From the UHGV virus genome UHGV-1361067: a stretch of 46,806 nucleotides of DNA; one strand, 5' to 3'. Under the pieces are notes generated by a model. That model was not told the origin of the DNA. It saw only the letters and a program-made list of their open reading frames with translations, and did not search any database. Made by a program: the position numbers and the translations under genes. Numbering within the stretch: the stretch's first letter is position 1; each line of letters starts with the position of its first letter. The stretch comes from a virus. Of this stretch, positions 3,762 to 46,806 are shown one piece after another.

Positions 3762-3772
3762 GATGCCCCTGG

Positions 3773-3824
3773 TGATGTAGTTATGTCAATGCGCCTTGAC
3801 GTAGATTCTAGCATGGCGTAGATT
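3773..3824 (+). promoter_or_regulatory. Rightward sigma70-like promoter with three copies of the TGAYGTAGATT motif
   Basis: TTGACG (3796-3801), 17-nt spacer, TAGATT (3819-3824). Motif copies: TGATGTAGTT at 3773, TGACGTAGATT at 3797, TGGCGTAGATT at 3814. The region is divergent with the leftward small-gene operon. Confidence 0.55.
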
Positions 3825-3850
3825 AAAATGAAACCTCTCGGAGAAATCTT

Positions 3851-4154: not shown

Positions 4155-4183
4155 TTGACGTGGATTCATGGTTGATGTAGATT
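4155..4183 (+). promoter_or_regulatory. Rightward promoter TTGACG-N17-TAGATT
   Basis: TTGACGTGGATT at 4155 and TTGATGTAGATT at 4172. It is preceded by AT-rich ATTTATTATAAAT. Confidence 0.5.
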
Positions 4184-4568: not shown

Positions 4569-4592
4569 AGGCCCCGCAACGGGGCTTTTTCT
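4569..4592 (+). terminator. Rho-independent terminator GCCCCG-caa-CGGGGC + T5
   Basis: Perfect GC hairpin and T-run. The same hairpin core recurs at 37610. Confidence 0.6.
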
Positions 4593-7126
4593 TATCTCCT
4601 GCTCCTTCTAATCCATCCAGAGCCACGCTGTACGATGTGATCGTTGCATGCATATCTGATTGCGTCAATGAAGTGGTTCCACGCATCCACAATATTTGTG
4701 AGCACGTTACCCGTCAGCTTGTCCACCTTGTAACTGTACATAGTGAACTCTTCCTGAGTCTGTGTGCAGCGGTCATGAATGATGATGCTGTCGCAACCCC
4801 TGAGCCAGGTTACACCCTCCTCCACGCTCCCGGGCCACTTATTGCATGGATGGATATCAAATCCTGCGCGTTTGATGTGACTGATTGTTTCTGGCCGAGA
4901 GCAGTCCCCATACCATCTTGCCTTCCTGGAGAGTGGGAATGATTGCTCCATCGCTGTAGGTGTGTCGGTAATCTCAAGGCCTACACGGCCGTATTCGCGC
5001 GCGACGTAAAGGTTGCGGCGGTCATCAGGAAGTTTCTCAATGTAAACCTCAACCATCGCCGTTGCGTCCTGCGAGAATCCAAAGTCGATGCCAAAGTAAG
5101 GCCCATGCCATTCCGGCTTAACCTCGAAATCAGCAACGCGCCACTTACCGCCAAATACCTGCTCATCATTACGCTTATTAAAGCGCCCACCCCACACCCA
5201 TTGATAGCGGTCGAAGTCGGTCTCTTTCATGCGTTGCATTTGGCTTGGGAGCGGAGTATCCCAGAACCACGGATTGTCTGAGTAATTACACTCCATAATC
5301 AGGTTTTCATCATCCTCATAGATGCCGCCATTTTCGCGCAATTTATTATAAAAAGGCTCAACCCATATTTTCCACGTCGGGTCATGCTCTTTATTTGGGT
5401 TGAAAGTCACCCATATCTCTGACCCTTCAGCGCGGACTGTTGGGGTGAGGATTTCCCAGCTTGTCTGGCTGACGTTTTCCGCCTCCTCGACCCAAGCTAC
5501 TGTAATGCCAGCGAAGCCTTTTACGGTCGTCTGGTTGCGATACAGGCCTTTAAAGCGGAACTTTGCTTTCGTTACCTTGTGTGTTATTTCGTTGTTGATG
5601 ACGCGAAACTCTTTTGTCTCGCCCTTCCTGTCAATCTCGTCTTTCAGCTCCTGATATGAACTATCCTCAATAGACTGCTGAATCTCACGAAAACAAGCTA
5701 TCCTGTCAGGCTTAAAGCGTGCACGCTCCGTAAGTATTGTTGTTACTGTCCTTGTTTTTCCGCTGTTGTGTGTAACCGTGCCATCAGCAAGCAGGAAAAG
5801 ATGATCGCCATCAATAGTGAACCCAGCGTATTCACCATGCCCGACATAAGACAATGACACCTCAGACATCTTTCCACGGGTTGACTTGGTTTTCTCTGCT
5901 ATCTTCCTTTTTACTCGGCATGGGATTGTATGAAGGTCACCACTAACGAACACCTCCCATACGTCCTTTTCGTATATTCTTTTCTCACCTTTATATTCAA
6001 AGGTGACATCAGTCTTTTTGATTATGCTTGACTTGAAGCCAAGCGATCTTGCCACATCCATCAAAGAGAAGGCCATTTCTTTATTTATTGATGTGAAAGA
6101 ATAGCTTTTCTTTTTCTGGTCATAATGCGAATCAGTATCCAATAGCCCAGCCAGAATCTGAAGTCTTACCTCTCTGCTGTTTTTGATATAGCAGTCAGGT
6201 ATGTGTTTATTATTAATCACCCCAAGCTGCTGCATTTTAGTTAGTAACGGGTTGGTGTTCTTCCCCATGCCAGCAGCTCGACCATTAGTTATCGCATAGA
6301 CAGGGCATCTATCATCGTCGCGAACCTTTACCTGCATCCCGTATTGGCTTGCCACGTTGTGAATGTAGTCAACTATCTCTGGATCAGGCGTGCACACTTC
6401 AACACCACGAGATGAACCATCACCTAACCATAAACCAAGAAAGTACGGGTCAACTGGGACGCTTTGGTCATTAAAATCCCATCCTGTTCGCCACCCTTTA
6501 AAGACATGGCGGAACTTTTTTGAAGTTGCGCGCGACAAATATTCTGAAACACCAATATTCAGTATTTCAGGTTCATTCGGGTAATAACGATAAATTCTTT
6601 TACCATCCGGTGTTTTTGTCTCGTCACTGATAGCAGATGGAATCTTTCGTAATGACAGTATGTGACTTGAGTTGACAGTGTAGTCATCAGCATATTTTTG
6701 ATGAACCGTATACATGTCATCAAACCCCCGACAGATGTTTAAAACATTTCGTGGTTTACTGTCTGGACCCATAACCTTATCGCCAACAACGATATCCTCT
6801 ACGCGTTTTAGGCTACCATCAAACATCCTCACCATCGTGCCGATGGCTAAGCATCCGCGCCCGCCAAACACAATCTTATTACGCTTGGGGTAAAGTAGCT
6901 TTTCCAGCTTTTCTGGTATCAGGTGATCAACGCCAATATCAGAGTCGCTAACGTCATCAACTCCGCTTTGCGTCATTTTTAGTTTGCGAACAATCTGCTT
7001 ATCTGTATTAACAACACCGAACACCGCAGATTCAGGCGCATCAATCACGCCATCGCCAATAATCTCTTCGAGTTTTTCAATTGCTGGTGCTGAGAGTCTT
7101 TTGCGTGCCATATATAGATTCCTCAT
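4592..7126 (-). CDS. Terminase large subunit, interrupted by an in-frame intein
   Basis: 844-aa ORF. The N-extein ends …KIVFGGRG, and the C-extein begins SGKTRTV…, so the junction reconstitutes the Walker A motif FGGRGSGKT. Walker B-like VAWVEEAE lies downstream. Without the intein the protein is about 481 aa. Confidence 0.8.
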   Translation of the reverse strand: MRNLYMARKRLSAPAIEKLEEIIGDGVIDAPESAVFGVVNTDKQIVRKLKMTQSGVDDVSDSDIGVDHLIPEKLEKLLYPKRNKIVFGGRGCLAIGTMVRMFDGSLKRVEDIVVGDKVMGPDSKPRNVLNICRGFDDMYTVHQKYADDYTVNSSHILSLRKIPSAISDETKTPDGKRIYRYYPNEPEILNIGVSEYLSRATSKKFRHVFKGWRTGWDFNDQSVPVDPYFLGLWLGDGSSRGVEVCTPDPEIVDYIHNVASQYGMQVKVRDDDRCPVYAITNGRAAGMGKNTNPLLTKMQQLGVINNKHIPDCYIKNSREVRLQILAGLLDTDSHYDQKKKSYSFTSINKEMAFSLMDVARSLGFKSSIIKKTDVTFEYKGEKRIYEKDVWEVFVSGDLHTIPCRVKRKIAEKTKSTRGKMSEVSLSYVGHGEYAGFTIDGDHLFLLADGTVTHNSGKTRTVTTILTERARFKPDRIACFREIQQSIEDSSYQELKDEIDRKGETKEFRVINNEITHKVTKAKFRFKGLYRNQTTVKGFAGITVAWVEEAENVSQTSWEILTPTVRAEGSEIWVTFNPNKEHDPTWKIWVEPFYNKLRENGGIYEDDENLIMECNYSDNPWFWDTPLPSQMQRMKETDFDRYQWVWGGRFNKRNDEQVFGGKWRVADFEVKPEWHGPYFGIDFGFSQDATAMVEVYIEKLPDDRRNLYVAREYGRVGLEITDTPTAMEQSFPLSRKARWYGDCSRPETISHIKRAGFDIHPCNKWPGSVEEGVTWLRGCDSIIIHDRCTQTQEEFTMYSYKVDKLTGNVLTNIVDAWNHFIDAIRYACNDHIVQRGSGWIRRSRR
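5765..6853 (-). mobile_element. Intein (363 aa) with a double-LAGLIDADG homing endonuclease, in the terminase P-loop
   Basis: Begins with Cys (CLAIGTMV…) right after GGRG. Ends …LLADGTVTHN, followed by the +1 Ser (SGKT). Internal LGLWLGDGS and LAGLLDTDS motifs match LAGLIDADG. Boundary codons were verified on the sequence (gca at 6851-6853 is Cys; gtt at 5765-5767 is Asn). Confidence 0.75.
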
Positions 7127-7210
7127 CAGGGCATCATTGAAGTGAATGCGGCAGGCGGTGATGAGTCGCTTTTCGGGTGCCCCCTAGCCGCATTGATTAT
7201 TATAAATCAG

Positions 7211-10319: not shown

Positions 10320-10348
10320 ACTATACGATGGCGCTCAATCTACGTCAA
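10320..10348 (-). promoter_or_regulatory. Leftward promoter TTGACG-N17-TATAGT containing TTGACGTAGATT
   Basis: The minus-strand sequence tattgacgtagattgagcgccatcgtatagt has the same architecture as the rightward promoter at 35399. A second GTGTAGATT copy lies at 10270-10279 on the plus strand. Confidence 0.5.
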
Positions 10349-13670: not shown

Positions 13671-13699
13671 TTGACGATGATGTAGATTCATTGTAATTT
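13671..13699 (+). promoter_or_regulatory. Rightward promoter TTGACG-N17-TAATTT with TGATGTAGATT in the spacer
   Basis: First element of the duplicated module; compare 17664-17692. Confidence 0.5.
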
Positions 13700-13730
13700 A
13701 CTCGTATGAAACAATCAATCGTTACTTGCA

Positions 13731-14807
13731 ATGAAACAATTAATCGTTACAATAGAGGATAAGAAATGGCTATCACCGTCAAGAAGTGCGAGGTTTGCGG
13801 AAATGAGTTTATCGGAACTGCAAAAGCAAAATGTTGCTCAGGAAAGTGCAGGGTTAAAAAATGCAGGAACCAAAAGAAAGTCACACATTTCACAGGAGAG
13901 GCTAAGGGAGGTTCTTGATTACAACCCAGATACTGGGATATTCACACGTAAGATAAAGACAGGTTCTCGTGTTAAAGTCGGAGATATTGCTGGCTGTCTT
14001 GATGTTAGTGGTTATCTGAGAATTAGCATAGATGGCAATCAATATTGGGCGCAAAGACTCGCATGGATTTATGTTAATGGAGATAATATTGGGAATGCGA
14101 AAATTGAGCACATAAACAAAAATCGCGCTGACAACAGGATATGCAACCTCAGGCTTTCAACTGAAGTTTTAAATGAGAAAATGTGCTCAAAATGCAGGTC
14201 CGTTCTTCCAGCTACAAGCGAATACTTTTATGCAGATAAAAGTATGAAACTTGGCTTTAGTTCCATATGCAAGAAGTGCTCTGGTAATAAAGGGAAGAGA
14301 GCAAGATACCTTGGTAATGGATTGAAGATTTGCTCTAAGTGTAAATCTGTTCTTGAGGCGAACGAAGAAAACTTTAATAAAAATAAATCATCTCTTGATG
14401 GACTACGTCCTGATTGCAAAAAATGTCAGGCTGAGTTCAGGAAAAATATTTATAAATTAAAAAAGGCAGAGATAAATGAAAAATCAAAACGTTATTACGA
14501 TAAAAACAAGGAAAAGCATAACGAGAAGTCAAAGCAGTGGAGACAGAAAAACAAGGGTGTTGTTAGATATCATCAGCGTAAATATAAGTATCTTAAAAGA
14601 CGGGCGATACCATCATGGTTTGAACATGAAAGGGTTTTAATTGAAAAGGTTTATGAGATGGCTGGCGTTCTTGGTATGCAGGTTGATCACATAGTGCCAA
14701 TAAATAGCAAATTGGTTTGTGGCCTTCACTGCTGGCATAACTTGCAATTACTTGCACCAAGTGAGAACAGATCTAAAAGCAACTCTTATTGGCCTGACAT
14801 GCCATAG
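13731..14807 (+). CDS. Double-HNH endonuclease (N-terminal HNH_3, two Zn-ribbon repeats, C-terminal canonical HNH)
   Basis: IEHINKNRADNRICNLRL (HNH_3), CSKCRS…CKKC twice, and C-terminal VDHIVPINSKLVCGLHCWHNLQLLAPSENRSK. The conserved body starts at about 13900. The N-terminal about 55 codons overlap the Zn-ribbon ORF in another frame, so the real start is uncertain. Confidence 0.6.
   Translation: MKQLIVTIEDKKWLSPSRSARFAEMSLSELQKQNVAQESAGLKNAGTKRKSHISQERLREVLDYNPDTGIFTRKIKTGSRVKVGDIAGCLDVSGYLRISIDGNQYWAQRLAWIYVNGDNIGNAKIEHINKNRADNRICNLRLSTEVLNEKMCSKCRSVLPATSEYFYADKSMKLGFSSICKKCSGNKGKRARYLGNGLKICSKCKSVLEANEENFNKNKSSLDGLRPDCKKCQAEFRKNIYKLKKAEINEKSKRYYDKNKEKHNEKSKQWRQKNKGVVRYHQRKYKYLKRRAIPSWFEHERVLIEKVYEMAGVLGMQVDHIVPINSKLVCGLHCWHNLQLLAPSENRSKSNSYWPDMP
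13766..13918 (+). CDS. Small zinc-ribbon protein (50 aa, CxxC…CxxxC)
   Basis: MAITVKKCEVCGNEFIGTAKAKCCSGKCR…. Has a good SD (AGAGGATAAG). Differences from the paralog at 17753 are mostly synonymous in this frame. Confidence 0.55.
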   Translation: MAITVKKCEVCGNEFIGTAKAKCCSGKCRVKKCRNQKKVTHFTGEAKGGS

Positions 14808-17262: not shown

Positions 17263-17684
17263 AGCAGCTTGATAGTGGAATATGGGTATTTGATAGCGGT
17301 TATCGCGGAGAATGCCCAAAGGAGGAGACTGACCAGATGGGTTACGGCACATGGATGCAACACCGCTTCCCTGATGTTCTGTGGTTTCATGTACCAAACG
17401 AAACTGGCACATCAAGCATGGTGCAGTTTGTGCTGAAGCGCCAGAAGATGGGGGTTAAGGCTGGGATAGGCGATAACGTGATAATGACGCCAGGGGTAAA
17501 TCACAGTTGCGGGATGATTGAAGCAAAGCGCCGCGATAAAAGCAAAAGCAGGGTTAGCAAAGAGCAATCCGCTGTGTTAACTGAGATGTGCAGGCTTGGT
17601 CATTATGCCGCCATCGCTTACGGTCTTGATGAACTAAAAAAAGCCACACTTTTCTATTTTGGCTTGCTGAATGATGTAGATTGA
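17259..17684 (+). CDS. VRR-NUC domain nuclease
   Basis: GVKAGIGDNVIM…GMIEAKRRDKSKSRVSKEQ matches the VRR-NUC (PD-(D/E)xK) signature. TTG start with an AGGAG SD. An alternative ATG lies at 17337. Confidence 0.6.
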   Translation: MKQLDSGIWVFDSGYRGECPKEETDQMGYGTWMQHRFPDVLWFHVPNETGTSSMVQFVLKRQKMGVKAGIGDNVIMTPGVNHSCGMIEAKRRDKSKSRVSKEQSAVLTEMCRLGHYAAIAYGLDELKKATLFYFGLLNDVD

Positions 17685-17692: not shown

Positions 17693-17729
17693 TAGTAACA
17701 AATAAAAGTTACTTGCAATGTAACGGTAA

Positions 17730-18356
17730 ATGATTACAATAGAGGTTAAGAAATGGCTATCACCGTTAAGAAGTGCGAGGTTTGCGGAAATGAGTTTATC
17801 GGAACTGCAAAAGCAAGATTTTGCTCTGGGAAATGCAGAGTCAAACACCATAGGTGGAAGAAAAAGAATACCACGTGATGTTGTTTTGGATAGCTTAAAT
17901 TACAACCATGAAACAGGGGTTTTCATTAGAAATAAGACAGGTGGAGGTGTAAAAAAGGGTAGTGTTGCTGGCAGGAAAAAACATAACGGATACATAGAGA
18001 TAAGCATAAGCAATAAAAGATACTACGCGCATCGCTTGGCATGGTTGATTTATCATGGTTTCTGGCCTGAAGGTCAAATTGATCACATTAATGGTGTGCG
18101 TGACGATAACAGGATTTGCAACTTAAGAATCGCAACAAATATGCAGAATCAGTATAACGCTAAAAAGCCAAAAAATAACACATCAGGAGTTAAAGGTGTG
18201 TATTGGCAAAAACAGGTTAAAAAGTGGCAGGCTTACTGTGATGTTAACGGGAAAAGATACCATCTTGGGTTATTCAGTGATATTGAGAGAGCGCGGTTGT
18301 CTGTGATGAAATTCAGAGAAAAGATGCATAAAGAATTCTGTAACCACGGAGAGTGA
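17730..18356 (+). CDS. HNH homing endonuclease with AP2 domain (start uncertain)
   Basis: QIDHINGVRDDNRICNLRI plus SGVKGVYWQKQVKKWQAYCDV…LGLF. The N-terminal extension overlaps the Zn-ribbon ORF. An in-frame TTG at about 17890 (LDSLNYNHETG…) is an alternative start. Confidence 0.65.
   Translation: MITIEVKKWLSPLRSARFAEMSLSELQKQDFALGNAESNTIGGRKRIPRDVVLDSLNYNHETGVFIRNKTGGGVKKGSVAGRKKHNGYIEISISNKRYYAHRLAWLIYHGFWPEGQIDHINGVRDDNRICNLRIATNMQNQYNAKKPKNNTSGVKGVYWQKQVKKWQAYCDVNGKRYHLGLFSDIERARLSVMKFREKMHKEFCNHGE
17753..17878 (+). CDS. Small zinc-ribbon protein (41 aa), paralog of 13766-13918
   Basis: MAITVKKCEVCGNEFIGTAKARFCSGKCRVKHHRWKKKNTT*. The SD is conserved. Confidence 0.5.
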   Translation: MAITVKKCEVCGNEFIGTAKARFCSGKCRVKHHRWKKKNTT

Positions 18357-30833: not shown

Positions 30834-30868
30834 GTCTAAATCCTGTTTTCATAATGACGTAATTATAC

Positions 30869-30898
30869 CATTGACAGGTGGCGCAAAACTGACGTAGA
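30869..30898 (+). promoter_or_regulatory. Rightward promoter TTGACA-N18-TAGATT with a TGACGTAGATT motif
   Basis: A near-palindrome TAATGACGTAATTA lies upstream at 30851-30864. Confidence 0.5.
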
Positions 30899-30929
30899 TT
30901 GAAAGCATAAGGTGATTGAGGGTTTGACA

Positions 30930-31067
30930 TATGAACGAGACTGATGCTGATTTGAGGTTTTACATCGACCTTTACATTGACCAGGGATACACCTATGAAG
31001 AGGCCCGCGTAAAGGCGATTTTGTTGCTGGCTAAGATTGGCGTAGTGGTGGAGGATAAGAGATGAGC
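30930..31067 (+). CDS. Hypothetical small protein (45 aa)
   Basis: MNETDADLRFYIDLYIDQGYTYEEARVKAILLLAKIGVVVEDKR. Stop overlaps the next start. Confidence 0.35.
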
Positions 31068-32605: not shown

Positions 32606-32650
32606 GTTTAGAATCCTCTCTGTTTAGCTAAACAATCGCATTATATCATG

Positions 32651-32679
32651 TTGACAGGTTTTGATTGGTGGTGTAGATT
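32651..32679 (+). promoter_or_regulatory. Rightward promoter TTGACA-N17-TAGATT (GTGTAGATT variant)
   Basis: Hexamers at 32651-32656 and 32674-32679. Confidence 0.5.
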
Positions 32680-33107
32680 AAATGGCAGATAGTTTTCGTA
32701 AGCGACTTTGCGGGTTTTTAGAAACTGACCACAAAGATAAATGCAAACGAAGAAATGTATCTGGCAGTAGCCTAACGGCCAAACACCAGCAAGGTCTTCC
32801 GACTCCTTGTCAATGAATTCGGCGCACTGGCCCGGTGTGATTAATAATGGGCACACAACAGGTAAGAGCATTGTCAGGTAGCTTCAGGGGACACGCCCGC
32901 ACTGGTGACGACCTATGCGCAAAAGTACGTGTGGTAAGTCCTGGAGTGCTCTTTCCGTTGTGGTAATGCGGCTATGCGCACGTGGCAAGGTAGAAATATG
33001 CTCCTTTTGTGGGTATGCCTGCTGGATTTACCGACCAGCAACCTGGAGGCACCAGGGCCACAACAATAATTCGAATCCTGTCGCGGGAACCATATTCGGT
33101 GAGCGCA

Positions 33108-35237: not shown

Positions 35238-35398
35238 TAATTATTCTCCGAATGATGAACTTCCAGCATCTGTACACCTGAACCAGCGAAAGCGCCATGA
35301 CGATAACGCCGATTGCTATATCCAATTTCGCCGCCTTACGTTTTTCAGCACGGAACAGCGCGGGTTGAGTGTTGTTGGTTTAATTTTATCATAAAGTG

Positions 35399-35427
35399 TT
35401 GACGTAGATTGAGGGTGTCGCTATAGT
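35399..35427 (+). promoter_or_regulatory. Strong rightward promoter TTGACG-N17-TATAGT with TTGACGTAGATT
   Basis: A second TGACGTAGAAA copy lies at 35429-35439, around +1. Confidence 0.6.
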
Positions 35428-35467
35428 GATGACGTAGAAACAACAATAAATGTTAGAGGTGATGAGG

Positions 35468-35881: not shown

Positions 35882-36697
35882 ATGACATCTCTCGGAAAAA
35901 TTTACTCAGACAAAGAAACTCGCGGCGGAATCGTGGTCAACAAAGGTTATCAGGTTCCTGTCGATCAGCTTTATCTTGAGCCGGGATACAACATCCGCGA
36001 AGCCGATGAGCAGCACGTTGAATACTTCGCGCAGTGCTGGGAATCAGGCCAACCAATCCCGGCGTTAACTGTTATTCCTGATGCTGACGGAAAGAGAATC
36101 AAGATTCTTGACGGCCAGCATCGTTATCTTGGCGCACTGCGCGCCATTGAGCGCGGCGTACCAATTGTGCGCATTGAGTGCAAAGACTTCACCGGCGATG
36201 AAGCGGATAAAATCGCCTTCATGGTGTCATCCAGTCAGGGTAAGCAACTCGACCCGCTTGAGCGTGCAAAGGCTTATGTGCGCCTGAAGGGGTTCGGATG
36301 GACGAATGAAGAAATCGCCAAAAAAGTAGGCCGCTCAGTTTCTGATGTGCAGATGCATCTGTCACTTGGTGATGTGCCTGATGCTATCAAGCAACGCATC
36401 AATGCAGGCCAAATCAGCTATGCCAACGCCGTTGCAGTCGCACGTGAGCATGGCGATGATGCCGTTAACGTTATTGATGCTGCTGTTGAGGAAGCGAAAG
36501 CGCAGGGCAAAGATAAGGTGACGGCGAAAACGCTCAAGGCCAAAAAAGTTAAGCCGATTGACCGCCTGATTCAGTTGCTGAAAGAAGCAGATCACATGGT
36601 TGTTGCTGAGGGTCACGTGGCACAGGAAACAGAAGAATTTTTGCGCCTTCCCTCTGCTGAACTGAATGAAGTGCTGGCGATTCTGGAGAAGCTGTGA
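35882..36697 (+). CDS. ParB-like protein (ParB/Srx N-terminal domain + HTH)
   Basis: KILDGQHRYLGALRA (ParB GxxR box) and an HTH TNEEIAKKVGRSVSDVQMHLSL. GAGGAAAAG SD. Confidence 0.65.
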   Translation: MTSLGKIYSDKETRGGIVVNKGYQVPVDQLYLEPGYNIREADEQHVEYFAQCWESGQPIPALTVIPDADGKRIKILDGQHRYLGALRAIERGVPIVRIECKDFTGDEADKIAFMVSSSQGKQLDPLERAKAYVRLKGFGWTNEEIAKKVGRSVSDVQMHLSLGDVPDAIKQRINAGQISYANAVAVAREHGDDAVNVIDAAVEEAKAQGKDKVTAKTLKAKKVKPIDRLIQLLKEADHMVVAEGHVAQETEEFLRLPSAELNEVLAILEKL

Positions 36698-40769: not shown

Positions 40770-42179
40770 GTGGATTATATCATGCCGAAGAAGATGACGA
40801 TTGATGAACTCAAAGAAAAGCTGCGTAGCGTTCATGGCGAGACGTATGAGTATGATTTTTATACCTTCCATGGCTGCCACTCACCAATGAAAATAGTATG
40901 CAAAAAGCATGGGGAATTCTGGCAAAAGCCATCCAAACACCTTCATGGTCAGGGGTGTGCAAAGTGCCAAAAGGGCGTCATTTCTGTCGATGATTTTAAA
41001 TCAATGGCTTCCGCTGTTCACAGAGGAAAATATGACTATAGCAAGGTTTTTTTTGAAACGTTTTCTCGGGAAAAGGTAACAATCGGATGCCCGATCCATG
41101 GGTGGTTTGAGCAAGGAGCCTACATTCACCTGAAACGTGGTAATGGATGCCCAAGGTGCGGGGATGAGAGTTCGAGGAAAGCAAAGATCAAAATGTTCGG
41201 TGATTTTGTTGATGATGCGAAATGCATCCATGGAGATAAATATGAGTATTCACCGAATGGGTTTACTGGTTCCCGAGGCAAGATTAATATCTTATGCCCT
41301 GTGCATGGGGAGTTTACTCAGGGTGCAGCAAATCATCTTGCTGGGAATGGGTGCCCATCGTGCGCTGGAGTAATGTCAAACGCAGAAGCCGATATCCTTG
41401 CATTTGTTAAGTCACTAGACCCATATGCAATCAGTAGGGATAGAGCGACGATAGCGCCATATGAACTTGATATAGTCTCAAAATCCAAATCATTAGCCAT
41501 AGAGGTAAACGGCGTGTACTGGCACTCGGAGAAGGTCGGGAAAGATAGGCTTTATCACAGAATGAAGAGGGAGAGGGTTGAAGCGTCTGGAATGAGATTA
41601 ATAAGCATAAGAAGCGATATCTGGAGAGATAAAGAAGATTTGGTCAAATTAATAATAATGAATGCCATGGGCTGTAGGCCTAATGAAAACATAAACGCAA
41701 GAGAATGCGTCGTTAAAGAAGTATCAAGTCGTGATTCTAGGGATTTTCTTGATGCACATCACGTGATGGGTGGAAAGAACGCCAGCAGGCATTTCGGGCT
41801 GTTCAATGGTGATGATTTAGTTTCAGTTATGACTTTCACGATAAAATCAGGCGCAACAGAGCTTGTGAGGTTTGCGTCGAAGTGCAACGTTAGAGGCGGG
41901 CTTACCAAGATGCTAAAAAACTGCTCTTCAATCATCGGGTTTGACAGGTGCTTTAGTTATGTTGATCTTGATTTGTTTACTGGCAAGTCATACATAGCGG
42001 CAGGATTTAAACCAGTTAGCATAAAGCCAGGATTTGGCATAGTTAATGGCAGTAATGTAGAGTCAAGACAGAAATGGAACAAGGCGCCGAAAGGTATGAC
42101 CCAAACAGAATGGTACGAATCTGAGGGTGTTAGCAGGATATGGGACAGCGGACAGATGAGAATAGAGTGGAGTAGATAA
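40770..42179 (+). CDS. Homing-endonuclease-like protein: four tandem zinc-ribbon repeats + Vsr/DUF559-like PD-(D/E)xK nuclease domain
   Basis: Repeats of C-x2-HG-x-F…G-x-GC-x2-C, four times (CKKHGEFW…GCAKCQ; CPIHGWFE…GCPRCG; CIHGDK…; CPVHGEFT…GCPSCA). Then DIVSKSKSLAIEVNGVYWHSE, like Vsr-type AIFIDGCFWHGH. Confidence 0.5.
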   Translation: MDYIMPKKMTIDELKEKLRSVHGETYEYDFYTFHGCHSPMKIVCKKHGEFWQKPSKHLHGQGCAKCQKGVISVDDFKSMASAVHRGKYDYSKVFFETFSREKVTIGCPIHGWFEQGAYIHLKRGNGCPRCGDESSRKAKIKMFGDFVDDAKCIHGDKYEYSPNGFTGSRGKINILCPVHGEFTQGAANHLAGNGCPSCAGVMSNAEADILAFVKSLDPYAISRDRATIAPYELDIVSKSKSLAIEVNGVYWHSEKVGKDRLYHRMKRERVEASGMRLISIRSDIWRDKEDLVKLIIMNAMGCRPNENINARECVVKEVSSRDSRDFLDAHHVMGGKNASRHFGLFNGDDLVSVMTFTIKSGATELVRFASKCNVRGGLTKMLKNCSSIIGFDRCFSYVDLDLFTGKSYIAAGFKPVSIKPGFGIVNGSNVESRQKWNKAPKGMTQTEWYESEGVSRIWDSGQMRIEWSR

Positions 42180-42181
42180 AC

Positions 42182-42212
42182 AAATAAAAGGCGTCATGTG
42201 GCGCCTTTTTTA
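42182..42212 (+). terminator. Rho-independent terminator AAGGCG-tcatgtgg-CGCCTT + T6
   Basis: Lies after the gene at 40770-42179. Confidence 0.5.
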
Positions 42213-42316
42213 TATCTAGCAGCAATAAAGCACCACGAAACGGACGCAAGAAGGTAAAGCGGAGATGCGGTAAAAGCGAAAAGAGTAGCAAAGAATGATA
42301 TCAGTATGATTGGCAT
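42194..42316 (-). CDS. Small hydrophobic peptide (40 aa, single TM + basic tail)
   Basis: AGGAGG SD 6 nt before the ATG. MPIILISFFATLFAFTASPLYLLASVSWCFIAARYKKGAT. A 10-bp inverted repeat GGCTGCTACC/GGTAGCAGCC spans the RBS and start. Confidence 0.35.
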   Translation of the reverse strand: MPIILISFFATLFAFTASPLYLLASVSWCFIAARYKKGAT

Positions 42317-42360
42317 GGCTGCTACCTCCTGAATGCAAGGTAGCAGCCAATGATGAAGAT

Positions 42361-42705: not shown

Positions 42706-42996
42706 TTACGACTCCACATCCAAATGTTTGACTTCGCCATCTTTGTATAACCTCCAGGGGATGCAAACGATGCATCCACCAATATTCATTTCAATGGAGT
42801 GCTCACCCTCTCTGAATGAATCTGCATGCCACTGGCTAACTGTGTCGTCGTGCCATGTAATTTTAATTAATGCGCTTTTTGGTTTGCTCACATTCACCTC
42901 CTCCACTATCCATCCCATCTCTCTACGATTATTGGCTGTGCGTTCACAGTTGGTGACAAACAGCACGGTTCCTGATTTATGCTTTACCGCCCACAT
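42706..42996 (-). CDS. Hypothetical protein
   Basis: 96-aa ORF. Confidence 0.45.
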   Translation of the reverse strand: MWAVKHKSGTVLFVTNCERTANNRREMGWIVEEVNVSKPKSALIKITWHDDTVSQWHADSFREGEHSIEMNIGGCIVCIPWRLYKDGEVKHLDVES

Positions 42997-43454
42997 GACT
43001 GGCGCGCCCCGGCAAGCAACTTTTCAAACATCATCCTGTCACGGCTCATGCCAAACGGGATGATCTCCTGCCAGTAATATTTCCATGCGCCGCCGGGAAG
43101 CATTTCACGATCAACCTGACCAATGCTTGCCAGGTAGCGCATGCGTGCCTTGAGGATGGTGTAGTTGACGCCGACAGCCTCCGCTATCTGCTTGCTCTTG
43201 CGCCCGGGATTCGCCTCAAGATAGGTCTGAATTGCCAGGTCAAGCGCAGTATTATCGGGATTGAGGAAATACTTAAAGCAGCGCCTGCCATGGCTTACGC
43301 TTTCCTCTTTAATAATAAATCCCATGCCCTCAAGCTCAATCAGATAACCAGTAACGCTGGCTCGGTTTGTCATGCCAGTCTGCTTGCGTATCATGGCATT
43401 GGTTGCGCCGCCGCAGCGCTCTATCACCGTGAGTATTTGCGTTTTAAAGTCCAT
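42984..43454 (-). CDS. Putative DNA-binding protein with two winged-helix domains
   Basis: Likely start is MDFKTQIL at 43454. Two wHTH-like segments: ILTVIERCGGATNAMIRKQTGMTNRASVTGYLIELEGMGFI and IQTYLEANPGRKSKQIAEAVGVNYTILKARMRYLASIGQV. Confidence 0.45.
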   Translation of the reverse strand: MDFKTQILTVIERCGGATNAMIRKQTGMTNRASVTGYLIELEGMGFIIKEESVSHGRRCFKYFLNPDNTALDLAIQTYLEANPGRKSKQIAEAVGVNYTILKARMRYLASIGQVDREMLPGGAWKYYWQEIIPFGMSRDRMMFEKLLAGARQSCGR

Positions 43455-44088: not shown

Positions 44089-44254
44089 TTTTTCTCTCCA
44101 TCAGCACTTTGTAGTGAACGCCATAATATTTGAGCACCTGACTATGGTTGTGCAGATACCCGTCATCATCTTCAATCGGTAGTCTTACCACAATGTAAAA
44201 CGCCCGGTAGAGTTCTGTCCATCCATGACAACATTTGCGCTTCCTCGGCTTCAT
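44078..44254 (-). CDS. Hypothetical small protein
   Basis: 58 aa from MKPRKRK…. It overlaps the upstream gene by about 80 nt in another frame, so confidence is low. Confidence 0.25.
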   Translation of the reverse strand: MKPRKRKCCHGWTELYRAFYIVVRLPIEDDDGYLHNHSQVLKYYGVHYKVLMERKNEY

Positions 44255-44387
44255 GGGCGGCCTCCATAGCAGCCAGATCAATGCGCTGCTCGATAGATTT
44301 AATGATTGACTCTGGCACATTAAGCATTTGCAGAGTCTCCCGGCAATCGCGCTTATGAACCTCTGTCACCTCCTGCCATTTCTTCAT
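44172..44387 (-). CDS. Hypothetical protein (first gene of the leftward operon)
   Basis: Start MKKWQEV at 44387, with a GAGGAG SD. Confidence 0.45.
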   Translation of the reverse strand: MKKWQEVTEVHKRDCRETLQMLNVPESIIKSIEQRIDLAAMEAAHEAEEAQMLSWMDRTLPGVLHCGKTTD

Positions 44388-44433
44388 TCCACACCACTCC
44401 TCATCACTGTGATATAATCTACACCATCTAGTA

Positions 44434-44459
44434 TTGACTAATTGACGTAGATTAGTCAA
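44434..44459. promoter_or_regulatory. 26-bp palindromic operator TTGACTAAT-TGACGTAG-ATTAGTCAA in a divergent promoter region
   Basis: Perfect 9-bp inverted arms around an ACGT core. It contains the TTGACGTAGATT motif. A TATAAT lies at 44413-44418, and GTGTAGATT sits on the minus strand at 44416-44424. Confidence 0.6.
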
Positions 44460-44483
44460 GATGGTTTTCACAGGAGAGCGACA

Positions 44484-44684
44484 ATGGCGAGACAACGCAA
44501 AGAACCACTGGAAGTACTGACTGAGATTATCGCTAAGCGCCAGCCGTTAAGCCTGCGAGATGTCAGATATTACGCGCACTGCTATGTAGCAATGCGGGAA
44601 TGGAGCGCTGAAGAAATGTATGCGTTTGTGCGTGAGCACTTCAGCGTGGATGAGAAAAACAAAGTTACGTTGAGGGTGGAGTGA
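44484..44684 (+). CDS. Hypothetical protein
   Basis: 66-aa ORF with a GGAGAG SD. Confidence 0.5.
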   Translation: MARQRKEPLEVLTEIIAKRQPLSLRDVRYYAHCYVAMREWSAEEMYAFVREHFSVDEKNKVTLRVE

Positions 44685-46547: not shown

Positions 46548-46587
46548 TTTTACCTCCGGTGATGCAGATTATTTTATCACAATAGTC

Positions 46588-46623
46588 TTGACGTAGATTG
46601 AATCGTAAGCGATGATGTAGATA
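46588..46623 (+). promoter_or_regulatory. Rightward promoter region with TTGACGTAGATT + TGATGTAGATA
   Basis: Motif copies lie 24 bp apart. The same segment on the minus strand probably carries the lysis-cassette promoter (TTCAAT…TGATAAAAT). Confidence 0.45.
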
Positions 46624-46645
46624 CACAAACACAGGAGAGTAAAAA

Positions 46646-46806
46646 ATGAAAAAATTAATCGCAGCAGCAGTATTCGCAATGGCTTCATTTGGTGCGTCGG
46701 CTGGCGAGTTTTGCAATGCAGTTGGTGAGTTCGGTGAAGCGGCAGCAGAAGCCCGTGATGCTGGCGTATCAAAGCAGCTAGCGCTGATTGTTTCTTTTGG
46801 AGGCCA
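46646..46806 (+). CDS. Secreted protein (signal peptide), 5' partial
   Basis: CAGGAGAG SD. MKKLIAAAVFAMASFGASA-GEF… Continues beyond the window. Confidence 0.5.
   Translation, partial: MKKLIAAAVFAMASFGASAGEFCNAVGEFGEAAAEARDAGVSKQLALIVSFGG

Follow-up and report, generated by a model that had tools for sequence, protein, structure and literature searches.

Two opposed -35 hexamers form a palindrome around a repeated, asymmetric 11-bp element in a Klebsiella siphophage: a probable docking site of a phage regulator

The divergent promoter region

The stretch of DNA analysed here (the window, 46,806 nucleotides of UHGV virus genome UHGV-1361067) comes from a virulent Klebsiella siphophage of the ZX4/KpV2811/pIS4-A group. 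Near its right end, a 96-bp gap (44388-44483) separates a leftward operon, starting at 44387, from a rightward three-gene cassette, starting at 44484. The original prediction placed a palindromic element in this gap, at a divergent promoter, and assigned a Lar-like protein and a winged helix-turn-helix (wHTH) protein to the leftward operon. The context, the promoter setting and the gene content are all as it described. The features of the gap and its flanks are as follows.

42984..43454, minus strand: dual (w)HTH or MarR-like protein of the leftward operon, the binder put forward by the original prediction
44172..44387, minus strand: first gene of the leftward operon, 71 aa, without a family match
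44408..44418, plus strand: promoter P_R1, an extended -10 element TGTGATATAAT of the form TGnTAnAAT
44416..44426, minus strand: second 11-mer, TGGTGTAGATT, 16.5 bits
44430..44435, minus strand: -10 hexamer AATACT of promoter P_L (promoter scan)
44434-44459, no strand: 26-bp element TTGACTAATTGACGTAGATTAGTCAA, 9-bp inverted arms around TGACGTAG
44434..44439, plus strand: -35 hexamer TTGACT of promoter P_R2, the left arm of the palindrome (read from the sequence)
44443..44453, plus strand: central 11-mer, TGACGTAGATT, 18.8 bits, the maximum score
44454..44459, minus strand: -35 hexamer TTGACT of P_L, the right arm of the palindrome (promoter scan)
44457..44462, plus strand: candidate -10 hexamer CAAGAT of P_R2, after a 17-bp spacer
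44484..44684, plus strand: gene for the 66-aa protein at the head of the rightward cassette, a candidate for binding the 11-mer

Three promoters can be read in the gap. The promoter scan gives P_L as TTGACT-N18-AATACT, which matches 9 of 12 consensus positions, with a predicted start near 44423, 36 nt ahead of the ATG at 44387. P_R1 is predicted to start near 44425, which would place the palindrome inside a 59-nt leader. Both have the features of sigma-70 promoters, namely the -35/-10 spacing of P_L and the TGnTATAAT-type extended -10 of P_R1. P_R2 is weak (8 of 12 positions, under the threshold of the scan); its -10 element in relatives reads AATACT, AATAAT or AACAAT, shifted one base further on. 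The generic scan is not enriched in total (28 hits in the window vs 24.4 in shuffles), and only its top-scoring intergenic hits were used. The central 11-mer falls in the spacer common to P_L and P_R2, and the second 11-mer overlies the predicted +1 of P_L and the -10/+1 of P_R1. The divergent promoter region very probably carries a regulator-binding site.

Symmetry of the 26-bp element

The arms of the element, TTGACTAAT and ATTAGTCAA, are complementary at nine of nine positions, as had been claimed, and the embedded motif TTGACGTAGATT is real and highly non-random. The description of the whole as a perfect 26-bp palindrome is wrong: 11 of its 13 pairs (22 of 26 bases) are symmetric, and the self-complementary part of the 8-bp centre is ACGT only. 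Of dinucleotide shuffles, 47% contain a comparable 26-mer, with at least 11 of 13 symmetric pairs (mean 0.57 per shuffle; two observed in the window), so the symmetry by itself is not beyond chance. In this sense the palindrome at 44434-44459 is ordinary. A second near-palindrome, TAATGACGTAATTA, had been reported at 30851-30864; it exists and is self-complementary at 12 of 14 positions, and its coordinates are 30852-30865, one base further on.

The window holds six perfect inverted repeats whose arms are 9 bp long and whose loop is at most 10, with 1.9 expected. At least three of these six resemble GC-rich terminator-type hairpins.

An asymmetric 11-mer at promoters across the window

The element that recurs lies inside the palindrome. 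TGACGTAGATT has seven exact occurrences in the window, and its consensus, TGRYGTAGATT, has 12 against 0.10 expected, a count reached in none of 100 shuffles. When up to two mismatches are allowed, there are 26 hits (10.7 +/- 3.3 expected). About 18 sites are strong (at least 13 bits), and almost all of them are intergenic, in the core of promoters that serve non-structural genes. The 11-mer has no dyad symmetry. Outside the gap, the sites and the features associated with them are the following.

3797..3824, plus strand: tandem 11-mers, 17 bp apart, TTGACG-N17-TAGATT, upstream of a small gene
3805-3813, minus strand: opposed extended -10 element TGCTAGAAT, overlapping the tandem 11-mers at 3797..3824
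4156..4183, plus strand: tandem 11-mers, 17 bp apart, TTGACG-N17-TAGATT
10337..10347, minus strand: 11-mer at the -35 of TTGACG-N17-TATAGT
13678..13688, plus strand: 11-mer in the spacer of TTGACG-N17-TAATTT, upstream of replication genes
17672..17682, plus strand: 11-mer upstream of recombination genes
30852..30865, no strand: degenerate 11-mer TGACGTA-ATTA, the second near-palindrome described above
30890..30900, plus strand: 11-mer at the -10 of TTGACA-N18-TAGATT
32669..32679, plus strand: 11-mer at the -10 of TTGACA-N17-TAGATT
35400..35440, plus strand: 11-mer at the -35 of TTGACG-N17-TATAGT and a copy at +1, promoter of the ParB-like operon
35882..36697, plus strand: ParB/KorB-family HTH protein, the best-conserved candidate binder of the 11-mer
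46560..46623, plus strand: three 11-mers

Placement relative to the promoter ranges from -35 to +8. Five copies coincide with a -35 hexamer (3797, 4156, 10337, 35400 and 46589) and four with a -10 hexamer (3814, 4173, 30890 and 32669), and the promoters concerned match 9-10 of 12 consensus positions. Six further copies lie in the spacer or at +1 (13678, 17672, 35430, 44416, 44443 and 46613); at 13678, 17672, 44416 and 46613 the partner hexamer is poor. The only copies between co-directional genes are 4156/4173 and 17672, and these too have promoter geometry. All strong intergenic copies in the window but one are co-oriented with a nearby non-structural gene, as would be expected of a directional promoter element. 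The 11-mer is partly -35-like (TGAC) and partly -10-like (TAGATT), so some of its conservation may come from promoter selection alone. The needs of sigma-70 leave unexplained the conserved GTAGATT after the -35 and the conserved TGRYG before the -10.

The structural and lysis operons are preceded by promoters of another kind, extended -10 promoters of the P_R1 type, which stand back-to-back with 11-mer-bearing promoters. The degenerate copy at 30852..30865 overlaps the -10 of TGGTATAAT (30870->30862), the leftward extended -10 promoter that serves the tail operon. In 46560..46623, the first copy overlaps the +1 of TGATAAAAT (46579->46571), the leftward extended -10 promoter that serves the lysis genes, and the remaining copies there lie at the -35 and near the +1 of a rightward promoter.

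Literature searches with the motif strings returned unrelated primer matches only, and searches by phage and genus name brought up nothing about promoters, operators or MarR for KlebP_265 or ZCKp20p. The regulon behind the palindrome looks undescribed.

Conservation in related phages

The locus was compared across 54 distinct homologous loci in a protein-anchored set. This set superseded an earlier IMG/VR pattern scan for AGTATTGAC-N16-GTCAA, whose 14 specified bases are too few; its matches were mostly due to chance, and about 15 true relatives were left after filtering. The parts conserved across the 54 loci are only TTGAC-N16-GTCAA (52 of 54), both 11-mer copies, AGTATT and the extended -10 TGnTAnAAT of P_R1 (53 of 54); AGTATTGAC, in the -10 region of P_L, is present in 50. 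In an alignment of 12 relatives, AATCTAC..CA (the second 11-mer), AGTATTGAC and GTCAA are invariant. Distant relatives align to the query only in the intergenic block 44408-44469, and their flanking genes have no match.

The 11-mer is found genome-wide in ZX4, Vi II-E1 (Macdonaldcampvirus), Sf11 (Cedarrivervirus), ECO95 and SEzh_1 (Skatevirus); each of the 69 IMG/VR loci with a ParB homologue at least 80% identical has it as well. At the 17672 site, ZX4 and Vi II-E1 carry a second copy that overlaps by one helical turn. Across genera, the bases of the 11-mer outside the hexamers are as conserved as those within. Its orientation can change: the central copy (44443..44453) is inverted in K1M/SEzh_1 and L250/L254, the left copy (44416..44426) in L043 and a +1 copy in Sf11, and convergent pairs occur in the L201/L202 lineage only. 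These in-place inversions and convergent pairs are more readily explained by a bound protein than by a directional promoter element. The 11-mer, repeated at nearly all early-gene promoters of this Klebsiella/Salmonella phage group, is probably the docking site of a phage regulator.

Candidate binding proteins

We infer a ranking of possible binders in which the ParB/KorB-like protein comes first, the 66-aa winged helix second and the dual-wHTH protein last. The ParB-like protein belongs to an operon whose own promoter bears two 11-mer copies. It matches HTH_ParB (4e-11) and KorB (2.4e-06) in Pfam, both above the cut-offs, and its PDB hits include Spo0J (6e-12), Noc and KorB (1e-4). Its HTH stretch is nearly invariant in all 11-mer-bearing phages, down to 68% overall identity, the sole change being G-to-A in L202. 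In homologues at 43-45% identity the HTH stretch is altered, and their loci are without the 11-mer. This tie between the protein and the motif, seen in sequence comparison, is only a correlation. The GERRxRA arginine patch reads GQHRYLGA in this protein, which makes CTP-clamp behaviour uncertain. Moreover, the sites of ParB-family proteins are usually palindromic and the 11-mer is not; it does not have the form of a palindromic KorB/ParB operator or a parS-like site.

The 66-aa protein is present in six of the six genomes compared. Its AF2 model (pLDDT 83) has the topology H-S-H-H-S-S, and its best fold matches are winged-helix domains, with TM of 0.6-0.7 though weak E-values (at least 0.35); it is predicted to be a stand-alone winged helix. 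Both this protein and the ParB-like protein are encoded in every 11-mer-bearing genome examined, and co-occurrence does not separate them.

The dual-wHTH protein does have the fold described for it, MarR-like with a second HTH. Its suggested role as the binder is disfavoured: it is the worst conserved of the three candidates, with 34-38% identity between phages in which the motif is unchanged, and phage ECO95 has an unrelated 123-aa protein in its place.

A model of the control region

The 26-bp element is made up of two opposed -35 hexamers with one copy of the 11-mer, and is not a symmetric protein-binding site. We favour, with moderate confidence, a reading of the 96-bp gap as a compact two-way control region with three promoters and two asymmetric operator copies, most likely served by a phage repressor. 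We infer here that the promoters are active and where they start, that a protein binds, which protein this is and whether it represses or activates. Two sigma-70 -35 hexamers (TTGACT ... AGTCAA) face each other with 14 bp between them, where the 11-mer sits, its final ATT pairing by chance with the AAT just after the left hexamer. Combined with AATACT at 18 bp, the right hexamer would drive the Lar/wHTH operon leftward. The left hexamer together with CAAGAT at 17 bp would make a weak rightward promoter, and TGTGATATAAT would be a second rightward promoter, better conserved than P_R2. A phage-encoded DNA-binding protein would read one 11-mer per DNA-binding domain. Bound at the -35, spacer, -10 or +1, it would block RNA polymerase and thereby shut off or autoregulate early transcription; with both 11-mers occupied (44416-44426 and 44443-44453), both directions would be silenced together. 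As the extended -10 promoters of the structural and lysis operons stand back-to-back with 11-mer-bearing promoters, shutting down the early promoter of such a pair could in turn release the late one.

A wider reading, which we offer tentatively and hold to be distinctly less probable, is that of a genome-wide early-to-late switch in a virulent siphophage group. It would consist of some ten back-to-back promoter pairs governed through one 11-bp operator by the ParB/KorB-family protein or the 66-aa winged helix. Each pair would combine an 11-mer-bearing sigma-70 early promoter with an extended -10 late promoter, and the 11-mer would serve at the same time as a -35 or -10 hexamer, whichever way round it lies. 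The timing itself, early vs late, is an assumption drawn from gene content.

Alternative explanations

An improbable alternative dispenses with a dedicated regulator. The 11-mer would be a preferred strong-promoter module, a fusion of -35-like and -10-like sequence that selection for promoter strength would maintain and that duplication or gene conversion would spread; the palindrome would be a by-product. Consistent with this, the 11-mer supplies TTGACG as -35 or TAGATT as -10 in nine correctly spaced promoters, Vi II-E1 carries duplicates of whole promoter cassettes (at 2228 and 42191), and the window copies are co-oriented with transcription. However, at least six strong copies sit in the spacer or at +1 and serve as neither -35 nor -10, inversion of orthologous copies in place has left their sequence intact, convergent pairs occur in L201/L202, and the non-hexamer bases are equally conserved across genera.

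The original prediction, that the 26-bp dyad is a symmetric operator for a dimeric repressor or activator (e.g. the dual-wHTH protein) with one subunit on each 9-bp arm, is unlikely. It could draw on the 9/9 arms in the window and a few close relatives, on the invariance of TTGAC-N16-GTCAA in the aligned relatives, on DNA-binding proteins encoded on both sides and on the overlap with the promoter core, the arms coinciding with the -35 hexamers of P_L and P_R2. The dyad, however, is neither statistically unusual nor maintained in homologues, and the 26-bp dyad is not the selected unit. Full 9-bp arm complementarity is found in 8 of 54 loci, and 5-7 of 9 in 29. Pair counting over 11 distinct sequences leaves the inner four arm pairs (positions 6-9) unpaired in 6-7 of them, and arm covariation is no better than in shuffles, with no compensatory change. 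The ACGT core is variable (ATGT in many relatives). Even with up to three mismatches allowed, no second copy of the arm pair is present in the window, which holds no further TTGAC-N16-GTCAA either. The element that does recur is the asymmetric 11-mer, which stands alone or in tandem and in both orientations, a pattern unlike that of a simple symmetric dimer operator. The conserved TTGAC and GTCAA are fully accounted for, being placed exactly as -35 hexamers for conserved -10 elements at 17-18 bp on both strands. Even the longer symmetric form in RSU-F4K5 and L020, AGTATTGACTAG...TAGTCAATACT, which might seem to favour an operator, is exactly -10 plus -35 on both strands.

We give equally little credence to the 11-mer as a positive element, that is, the box of a phage activator or sigma-appropriating factor (T4 MotA-like) or of a phage-modified polymerase. 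Such a role would suit the co-orientation of copies with downstream genes, the sites without a good partner hexamer (13678, 17672, 44416 and 46613) and the -10-like TAGATT. On the other hand, placement varies from -35 to +8, unlike that of activator boxes, orientation is flipped in relatives, and several carriers are near-consensus sigma-70 promoters (10 of 12) at which activation should be unneeded. No MotA/AsiA-like or sigma-like gene was noticed among the ORFs screened.

It is very improbable that the binder is a host transcription factor conserved in Enterobacteriaceae. Klebsiella, Salmonella, Shigella, Escherichia and Citrobacter, the hosts of the 11-mer-bearing phages, have most regulators in common, yet the 11-mer vanishes in loci with a diverged ParB homologue, and we know of no enterobacterial regulator whose consensus matches it.

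Least probable of all is an RNA hairpin in the P_R1 leader acting on stability, processing or translation: the upstream extended -10 promoter is conserved and the predicted 66-nt leader folds stably in the window (-17.7 kcal/mol, z = -2.97; the arms form a stem of 9 bp), but comparative support is absent, since no arm pair shows a compensatory change, most relatives have a broken stem, ZX4 and the other relatives examined lack the outer CAUCU/AGAUG pairing, and the locus has no Rfam match at the gathering threshold. A tmRNA search of the plus strand (ARAGORN, also with lowered thresholds) found nothing credible.

Relevance for phage biology and engineering

ZX4, KpV2811, BUCT541/610, Vi II-E1, Sf11 and their relatives are phages under development for therapy and typing, and their gene regulation is unannotated. 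In this context, an 11-bp site at essentially every early promoter provides a ready map of transcription units, a testable candidate for a master regulator and an engineering handle for promoter swaps and reporter phages. If a ParB-family protein does bind the site, KorB-type global silencing would extend from plasmids to lytic phages; if the early-to-late switch is true, a lytic phage would have a KorB-like or stoperator-like global regulon. There is also a general warning, namely that a striking palindrome at a divergent promoter can stem from two opposed -35 boxes rather than from a dimer-binding site.

Comparison with known systems

Several well-studied systems resemble parts of this arrangement. 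At lambda OR (PR/PRM), as here, tight divergent promoters share operators through which one protein controls both directions, and the first gene on one side encodes a small protein with a DNA-binding fold. The lambda operators are 17-bp dyads bound by dimers, whereas the repeated unit here is asymmetric, and the dyad is built from two -35 boxes; furthermore, the site is genome-wide here and confined to two loci in lambda.

The middle promoters of T4 likewise combine a phage-specific box with a host-type -10 at many promoters of one temporal class. The MotA box is fixed near -30 and replaces the -35 element. Here, in contrast, there is no fixed position (placement runs from -35 to +8), and the promoters have good -35 hexamers of their own. 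The Omega repressor of plasmid pSM19035 also uses a short non-palindromic unit, direct or inverted and in variable numbers, at several promoters. Omega is a ribbon-helix-helix (RHH) protein that needs contiguous 7-bp heptads; the units here, by contrast, are 11 bp long and spaced 10 to 30 bp apart, and no RHH protein was identified.

The operator of KorB from plasmid RK2 is a 13-bp palindrome, and the site here is asymmetric. RK2 resembles the present system in that the element itself encodes a ParB/KorB-family HTH protein and in that one short site lies at many promoters of the same replicon (PMC11790492). By analogy, this suggests that one protein may coordinate many operons, as in the RK2 KorB regulon.

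The repressor of mycobacteriophage L5 binds as a monomer to more than 20 asymmetric 13-mers (PMC9283540). The operators and 'stoperators' of L5 and TipsytheTRex are likewise short asymmetric sites (13 bp; here 11 bp) in about 20 copies in a siphophage genome, some overlapping a -35 hexamer and with an orientation that largely follows transcription (PMC9283540). The 12 exact and roughly 18 strong copies described above fit this pattern of genome-wide repetition. The L5 site is read by a monomer and not by a symmetric dimer (PMC9283540), and monomer reading would apply here too. There are also differences: the L5-type phages are temperate and use their sites to maintain lysogeny (PMC9283540), whereas the relatives here are described as lytic, a term taken from the titles of papers, and L5 sites lie mostly in short within-operon gaps where they stop elongation (PMC9283540), whereas nearly all copies here are in promoter cores. 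In the window, almost all strong copies follow the direction of transcription. Reversing the orientation abolishes repression in L5 (PMC9283540), whereas here copies are flipped at orthologous positions in K1M/SEzh_1, L043, Sf11 and L250/L254.

Anatomy of the divergent promoter

The 96-bp gap at 44388-44483 lies between a leftward operon (a 71-aa gene, a 63-aa gene, a DUF7301 protein, a Lar-like protein, a wHTH protein and two unknowns) and a rightward cassette with genes of 66, 157 and 71 aa. Our gene calls thus agree with the context first described for this site, that is, a leftward operon with Lar-like and wHTH proteins opposite a three-gene cassette. In itself, the palindrome reported there is an unremarkable by-product of a two-way promoter; the site contains a probable operator of a family-wide regulon. 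The gap holds the following elements:

44459->44454, leftward: TTGACT, -35 of the sigma-70 promoter P_L
44435->44430, leftward: AATACT, -10 of P_L, with an 18-bp spacer
44408-44418, rightward: TGTGATATAAT, extended -10 of P_R1, predicted start near 44425
44434-44439 and 44457-44462, rightward: TTGACT-N17-CAAGAT, weak promoter P_R2 (8/12)
44443-44453, + strand: central 11-mer, in the shared spacer
44426->44416, - strand: second 11-mer, over the start sites and the P_R1 -10

P_L was called by the promoter scan, with a predicted start near 44423. Given this layout, the palindrome consists of two opposed -35 hexamers and the central 11-mer, whose terminal ATT pairs by accident with the AAT following the left -35 hexamer. 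TTGACTAATTGACGTAGATTAGTCAA is located at 44434-44459, and its arms are 9/9 complementary as predicted. It is not a perfect 26-bp palindrome, however, since the 8-bp centre is symmetric at ACGT only and 22/26 bases pair. A 26-mer of equal or greater symmetry was found in 47% of dinucleotide shuffles, and about 1.9 perfect inverted repeats with 9-bp arms are expected by chance. No second copy of the arm pair was found in the window with up to three mismatches allowed, and TTGAC-N16-GTCAA occurs once. The related near-palindrome placed at 30851-30864 does exist (12/14 symmetric), but one base off, at 30852-30865; it is a degenerate 11-mer covering the -10 of the tail-operon promoter TGGTATAAT.

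A recurrent 11-mer at promoters

The non-random signal at the palindrome is its inner 11-mer, TGACGTAGATT, which occurs exactly seven times in the window and, with at most two mismatches, 26 times versus 10.7 +/- 3.3 in shuffles. The consensus TGRYGTAGATT has 12 exact occurrences versus 0.10 expected, and a weight matrix (at least 13 bits) gives about 18 strong sites. Except for 9249 and 42351, these are intergenic and upstream of non-structural genes:

3797/3814 and 4156/4173: pairs 17 bp apart, with TTGACG from the first copy and TAGATT from the second at a 17-bp spacer
10337 (-) and 35400: single copies at the -35, followed 17 bp on by a canonical -10 (TTGACG-N17-TATAGT)
30890 and 32669: single copies at the -10, with a canonical -35 (TTGACA-N18/17-TAGATT); best intergenic scores of a generic promoter scan (10/12)
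13678, 17672 and 44443: copies in spacers
35430, 44416 (-) and 46613: copies over +1
9249 (-), 42351, 46560 and 46589: further strong sites

Recognition by sigma-70 does not account for the retention of GTAGATT after a -35 or of TGRYG before a -10, which argues for another reader of the whole 11-mer.

Conservation across relatives

The region has close matches (~89-95% identity) in the Klebsiella siphophages ZX4, KpV2811, YX3973 and BUCT541/610 and in the Aeromonas/Vibrio phages pIS4-A/pYD38-A. More remotely related are phages of Salmonella, Shigella, Escherichia and Citrobacter that belong to the genera Macdonaldcampvirus, Cedarrivervirus, Skatevirus, Saltrevirus and Swiduovirus. Against a 261-nt query, the distant phages Sf11, Vi II-E1, ZCEC08 and ST1UNAM match across 44408-44469 only; that is, the control region is conserved better than its flanking genes. 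Across 12 aligned sequences there is no variation in AATCTAC..CA, AGTATTGAC, GTCAA or the T..TG.TA scaffold of the extended -10.

The original prediction read the inverted arms as the geometry of an operator for a dimeric protein, and pair counting does not support this. Of 11 distinct sequences, 6-7 fail to pair at the four inner arm positions and four have U:G in place of the central C:G; the five outer pairs are invariant. Covariation is no different from shuffles. A further, independent set of loci was collected through the 66-aa gene downstream and comprises 75 loci with 54 distinct upstream regions. It keeps TGnTAnAAT in 53/54, TTGAC-N16-GTCAA in 52/54 and AGTATTGAC in 50/54, with arm complementarity of 9/9 in 8 regions, 8/9 in 15, 7/9 in 18 and 5-6/9 in 11. 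RSU-F4K5 and the related locus L020 carry a fully symmetric AGTATTGACTAG..TAGTCAATACT, which forms a -10 and a -35 on both strands.

The 11-mer itself can be turned around. The central copy is inverted in place in K1M/SEzh_1 (with TTGACGTAGATA as the P_L -35) and in loci L250/L254, the left copy in L043, and a +1 copy in Sf11 at the promoter orthologous to 46589. Retention of the same bases in either orientation is the pattern of a protein-binding site, unlike a directional promoter hexamer. In the L201/L202 lineage, whose ParB homologue is 68% identical, 11-mers form convergent pairs such as TGTCGTAGATAATAATCTACTCCA, a palindromised half-site (L201: 9959-9982, 13095-13119 and 15448-15487; L202 likewise).

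A promoter cassette of ~40 bp, tgtTGACGTAGAATcatcatTGATGTAGTTTgaactcat, occurs twice in Vi II-E1, at 2228(-) and 42191(+), which suggests promoter duplication or transfer.

Back-to-back promoters of structural operons

With the ZX4 annotation mapped onto the window, the - strand holds nearly all structural and lysis genes, and the + strand mostly replication, recombination and many small genes, as blocks scattered among the structural operons. The extended -10 TGnTAnAAT has 14 matches, 13 on the - strand, and nine lie 25-60 nt upstream of operon starts. It is found ahead of every structural or lysis operon and once ahead of the rightward cassette:

2720, 3805, 23050, 30862, 32640, 35383, 40774 and 46571, - strand: ahead of eight operons (portal, hyp02, tail fibre, tape-measure operon, major tail, head-tail genes, scaffold/capsid, endolysin)
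44410, + strand: within the 96-bp gap, ahead of the rightward cassette

Five gaps (3762-3850, 30834-30930, 32606-32680, 35238-35467 and 46548-46646) contain such a promoter back-to-back with one that bears the motif. At several sites the 11-mer's reverse complement starts within the last three bases of the extended -10, giving a composite TAnAAT-CTACRYCA (3813->3797 and 44410-44426 (+); variants 30870->30855 and 46579->46560).

Candidate binders

Six full genomes that share the motif were compared. There are three DNA-binding candidates:

35882-36697: ParB/KorB-family protein; Pfam HTH_ParB and KorB both above cut-offs
44484-44684: 66-aa protein, first rightward gene; in 6/6 genomes at 53-62% identity
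42984-43454: dual-wHTH protein; model pLDDT 73.5, a confident wHTH followed by a three-helix HTH, MarR-family matches

All are putative, and we rank them as candidates in this order. The ParB-like protein matches Spo0J, ParB, Noc and KorB in the PDB and is ~81% identical across genera, and all motif-bearing phages have its HTH stretch GWTNEEIAKKVGRSVSDVQMHLSL with hardly any change. The L201/L202 homologues keep this stretch, with one G-to-A change in L202. In the 43-45% identical homologues of L206-L210, whose loci lack the motif, the putative recognition helix differs at four to five positions. The promoter of the ParB-like protein's own operon bears two 11-mers. Against it count that ParB sites are normally palindromic and that its GERR patch reads GQHR. 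The 66-aa protein has an AlphaFold2 model (pLDDT 83) of H-S-H-H-S-S topology, whose top fold matches are all winged-helix domains (TM 0.6-0.7, weak E-values), and its wing and helix 2 are strongly conserved. Between phages carrying the same motif, the dual-wHTH protein reaches only 34-38% identity, and ECO95 has an unrelated 123-aa protein in its place.

Possible mechanism and known systems

A phage protein would recognise 11-mers singly, with one DNA-binding domain on each and no fixed orientation or spacing. Occupancy would occlude RNA polymerase at the promoters of non-structural genes, and two occupied 11-mers at this locus would shut both directions. Several of the motif-bearing promoters are near consensus, which makes repression likelier than activation. 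As presumed early and late promoters are paired back-to-back, repression may also ease competition on the late partner.

In function, the nearest analogue is the L5-type repressor, which has asymmetric operators and stoperators (PMC9283540), but site location and lifestyle differ and membership is not supported. The KorB regulon of RK2 (PMC11790492) is the nearest protein-family analogue. The 11-mer lacks the symmetry of KorB operators, and membership in this type is likewise not supported. Our literature search found no paper describing the motif, and the family-wide regulon appears to be undescribed in the literature searched.

Other features of the window

Directly downstream of the promoter TTGACA-N17-TAGATT (32651-32679) lies a ~420-nt stretch with few ORFs (32680-33100, +). 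Its Rfam matches are weak, to tmRNA and to tmRNA_permuted; the latter scores 24.9 bits (E 0.0037), short of the gathering score of 47. Positions 32743-32775 read GCA AAC GAA GAA ATG TAT CTG GCA GTA GCC TAA, or ANEEMYLAVA-stop, which we take to resemble the SsrA tag ANDENYALAA, and the 3' end, ...ttcgaatcctgtcgcgggaacca, resembles a T-arm followed by CCA. ARAGORN found nothing on the + strand of this stretch. It is identical in ZX4 and 76-79% conserved in SEzh_1 and in Sf11, where tRNA genes follow.

The large-terminase ORF (4592-7126, -) encodes 844 aa. Its alignment with the 474-aa ZX4 TerL is confined to residues 88-474 of the latter (61% identity) and to the C-terminal half of the ORF (4595-5764); the N-terminal ~450 aa are additional and may represent a fusion, an intein or a replaced module. 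Just upstream is an int-alpA RNA Rfam match (7131-7194, -; 42.6 bits versus a gathering score of 35.8).

The 13-mer GTTACTTGCAATG occurs at 13721-13733 and 17708-17720 (+), directly ahead of where two HNH endonuclease genes begin (13731-14807 and 17730-18356, +), and is probably an upstream region common to mobile homing-endonuclease cassettes. A 469-aa ORF at 40770-42179 (+), flanked by the scaffold gene and the early operon, is probably an inserted homing endonuclease; it has repeated Cys-pair motifs, is missing in ZX4 and is 37% identical to a region of Vi II-E1. Finally, a 12-bp perfect hairpin at 42316-42349 (region 42194-42349, -) contains the ribosome-binding site of a 40-aa hydrophobic ORF at the end of the leftward operon, which is followed by a two-way terminator (42186-42209).
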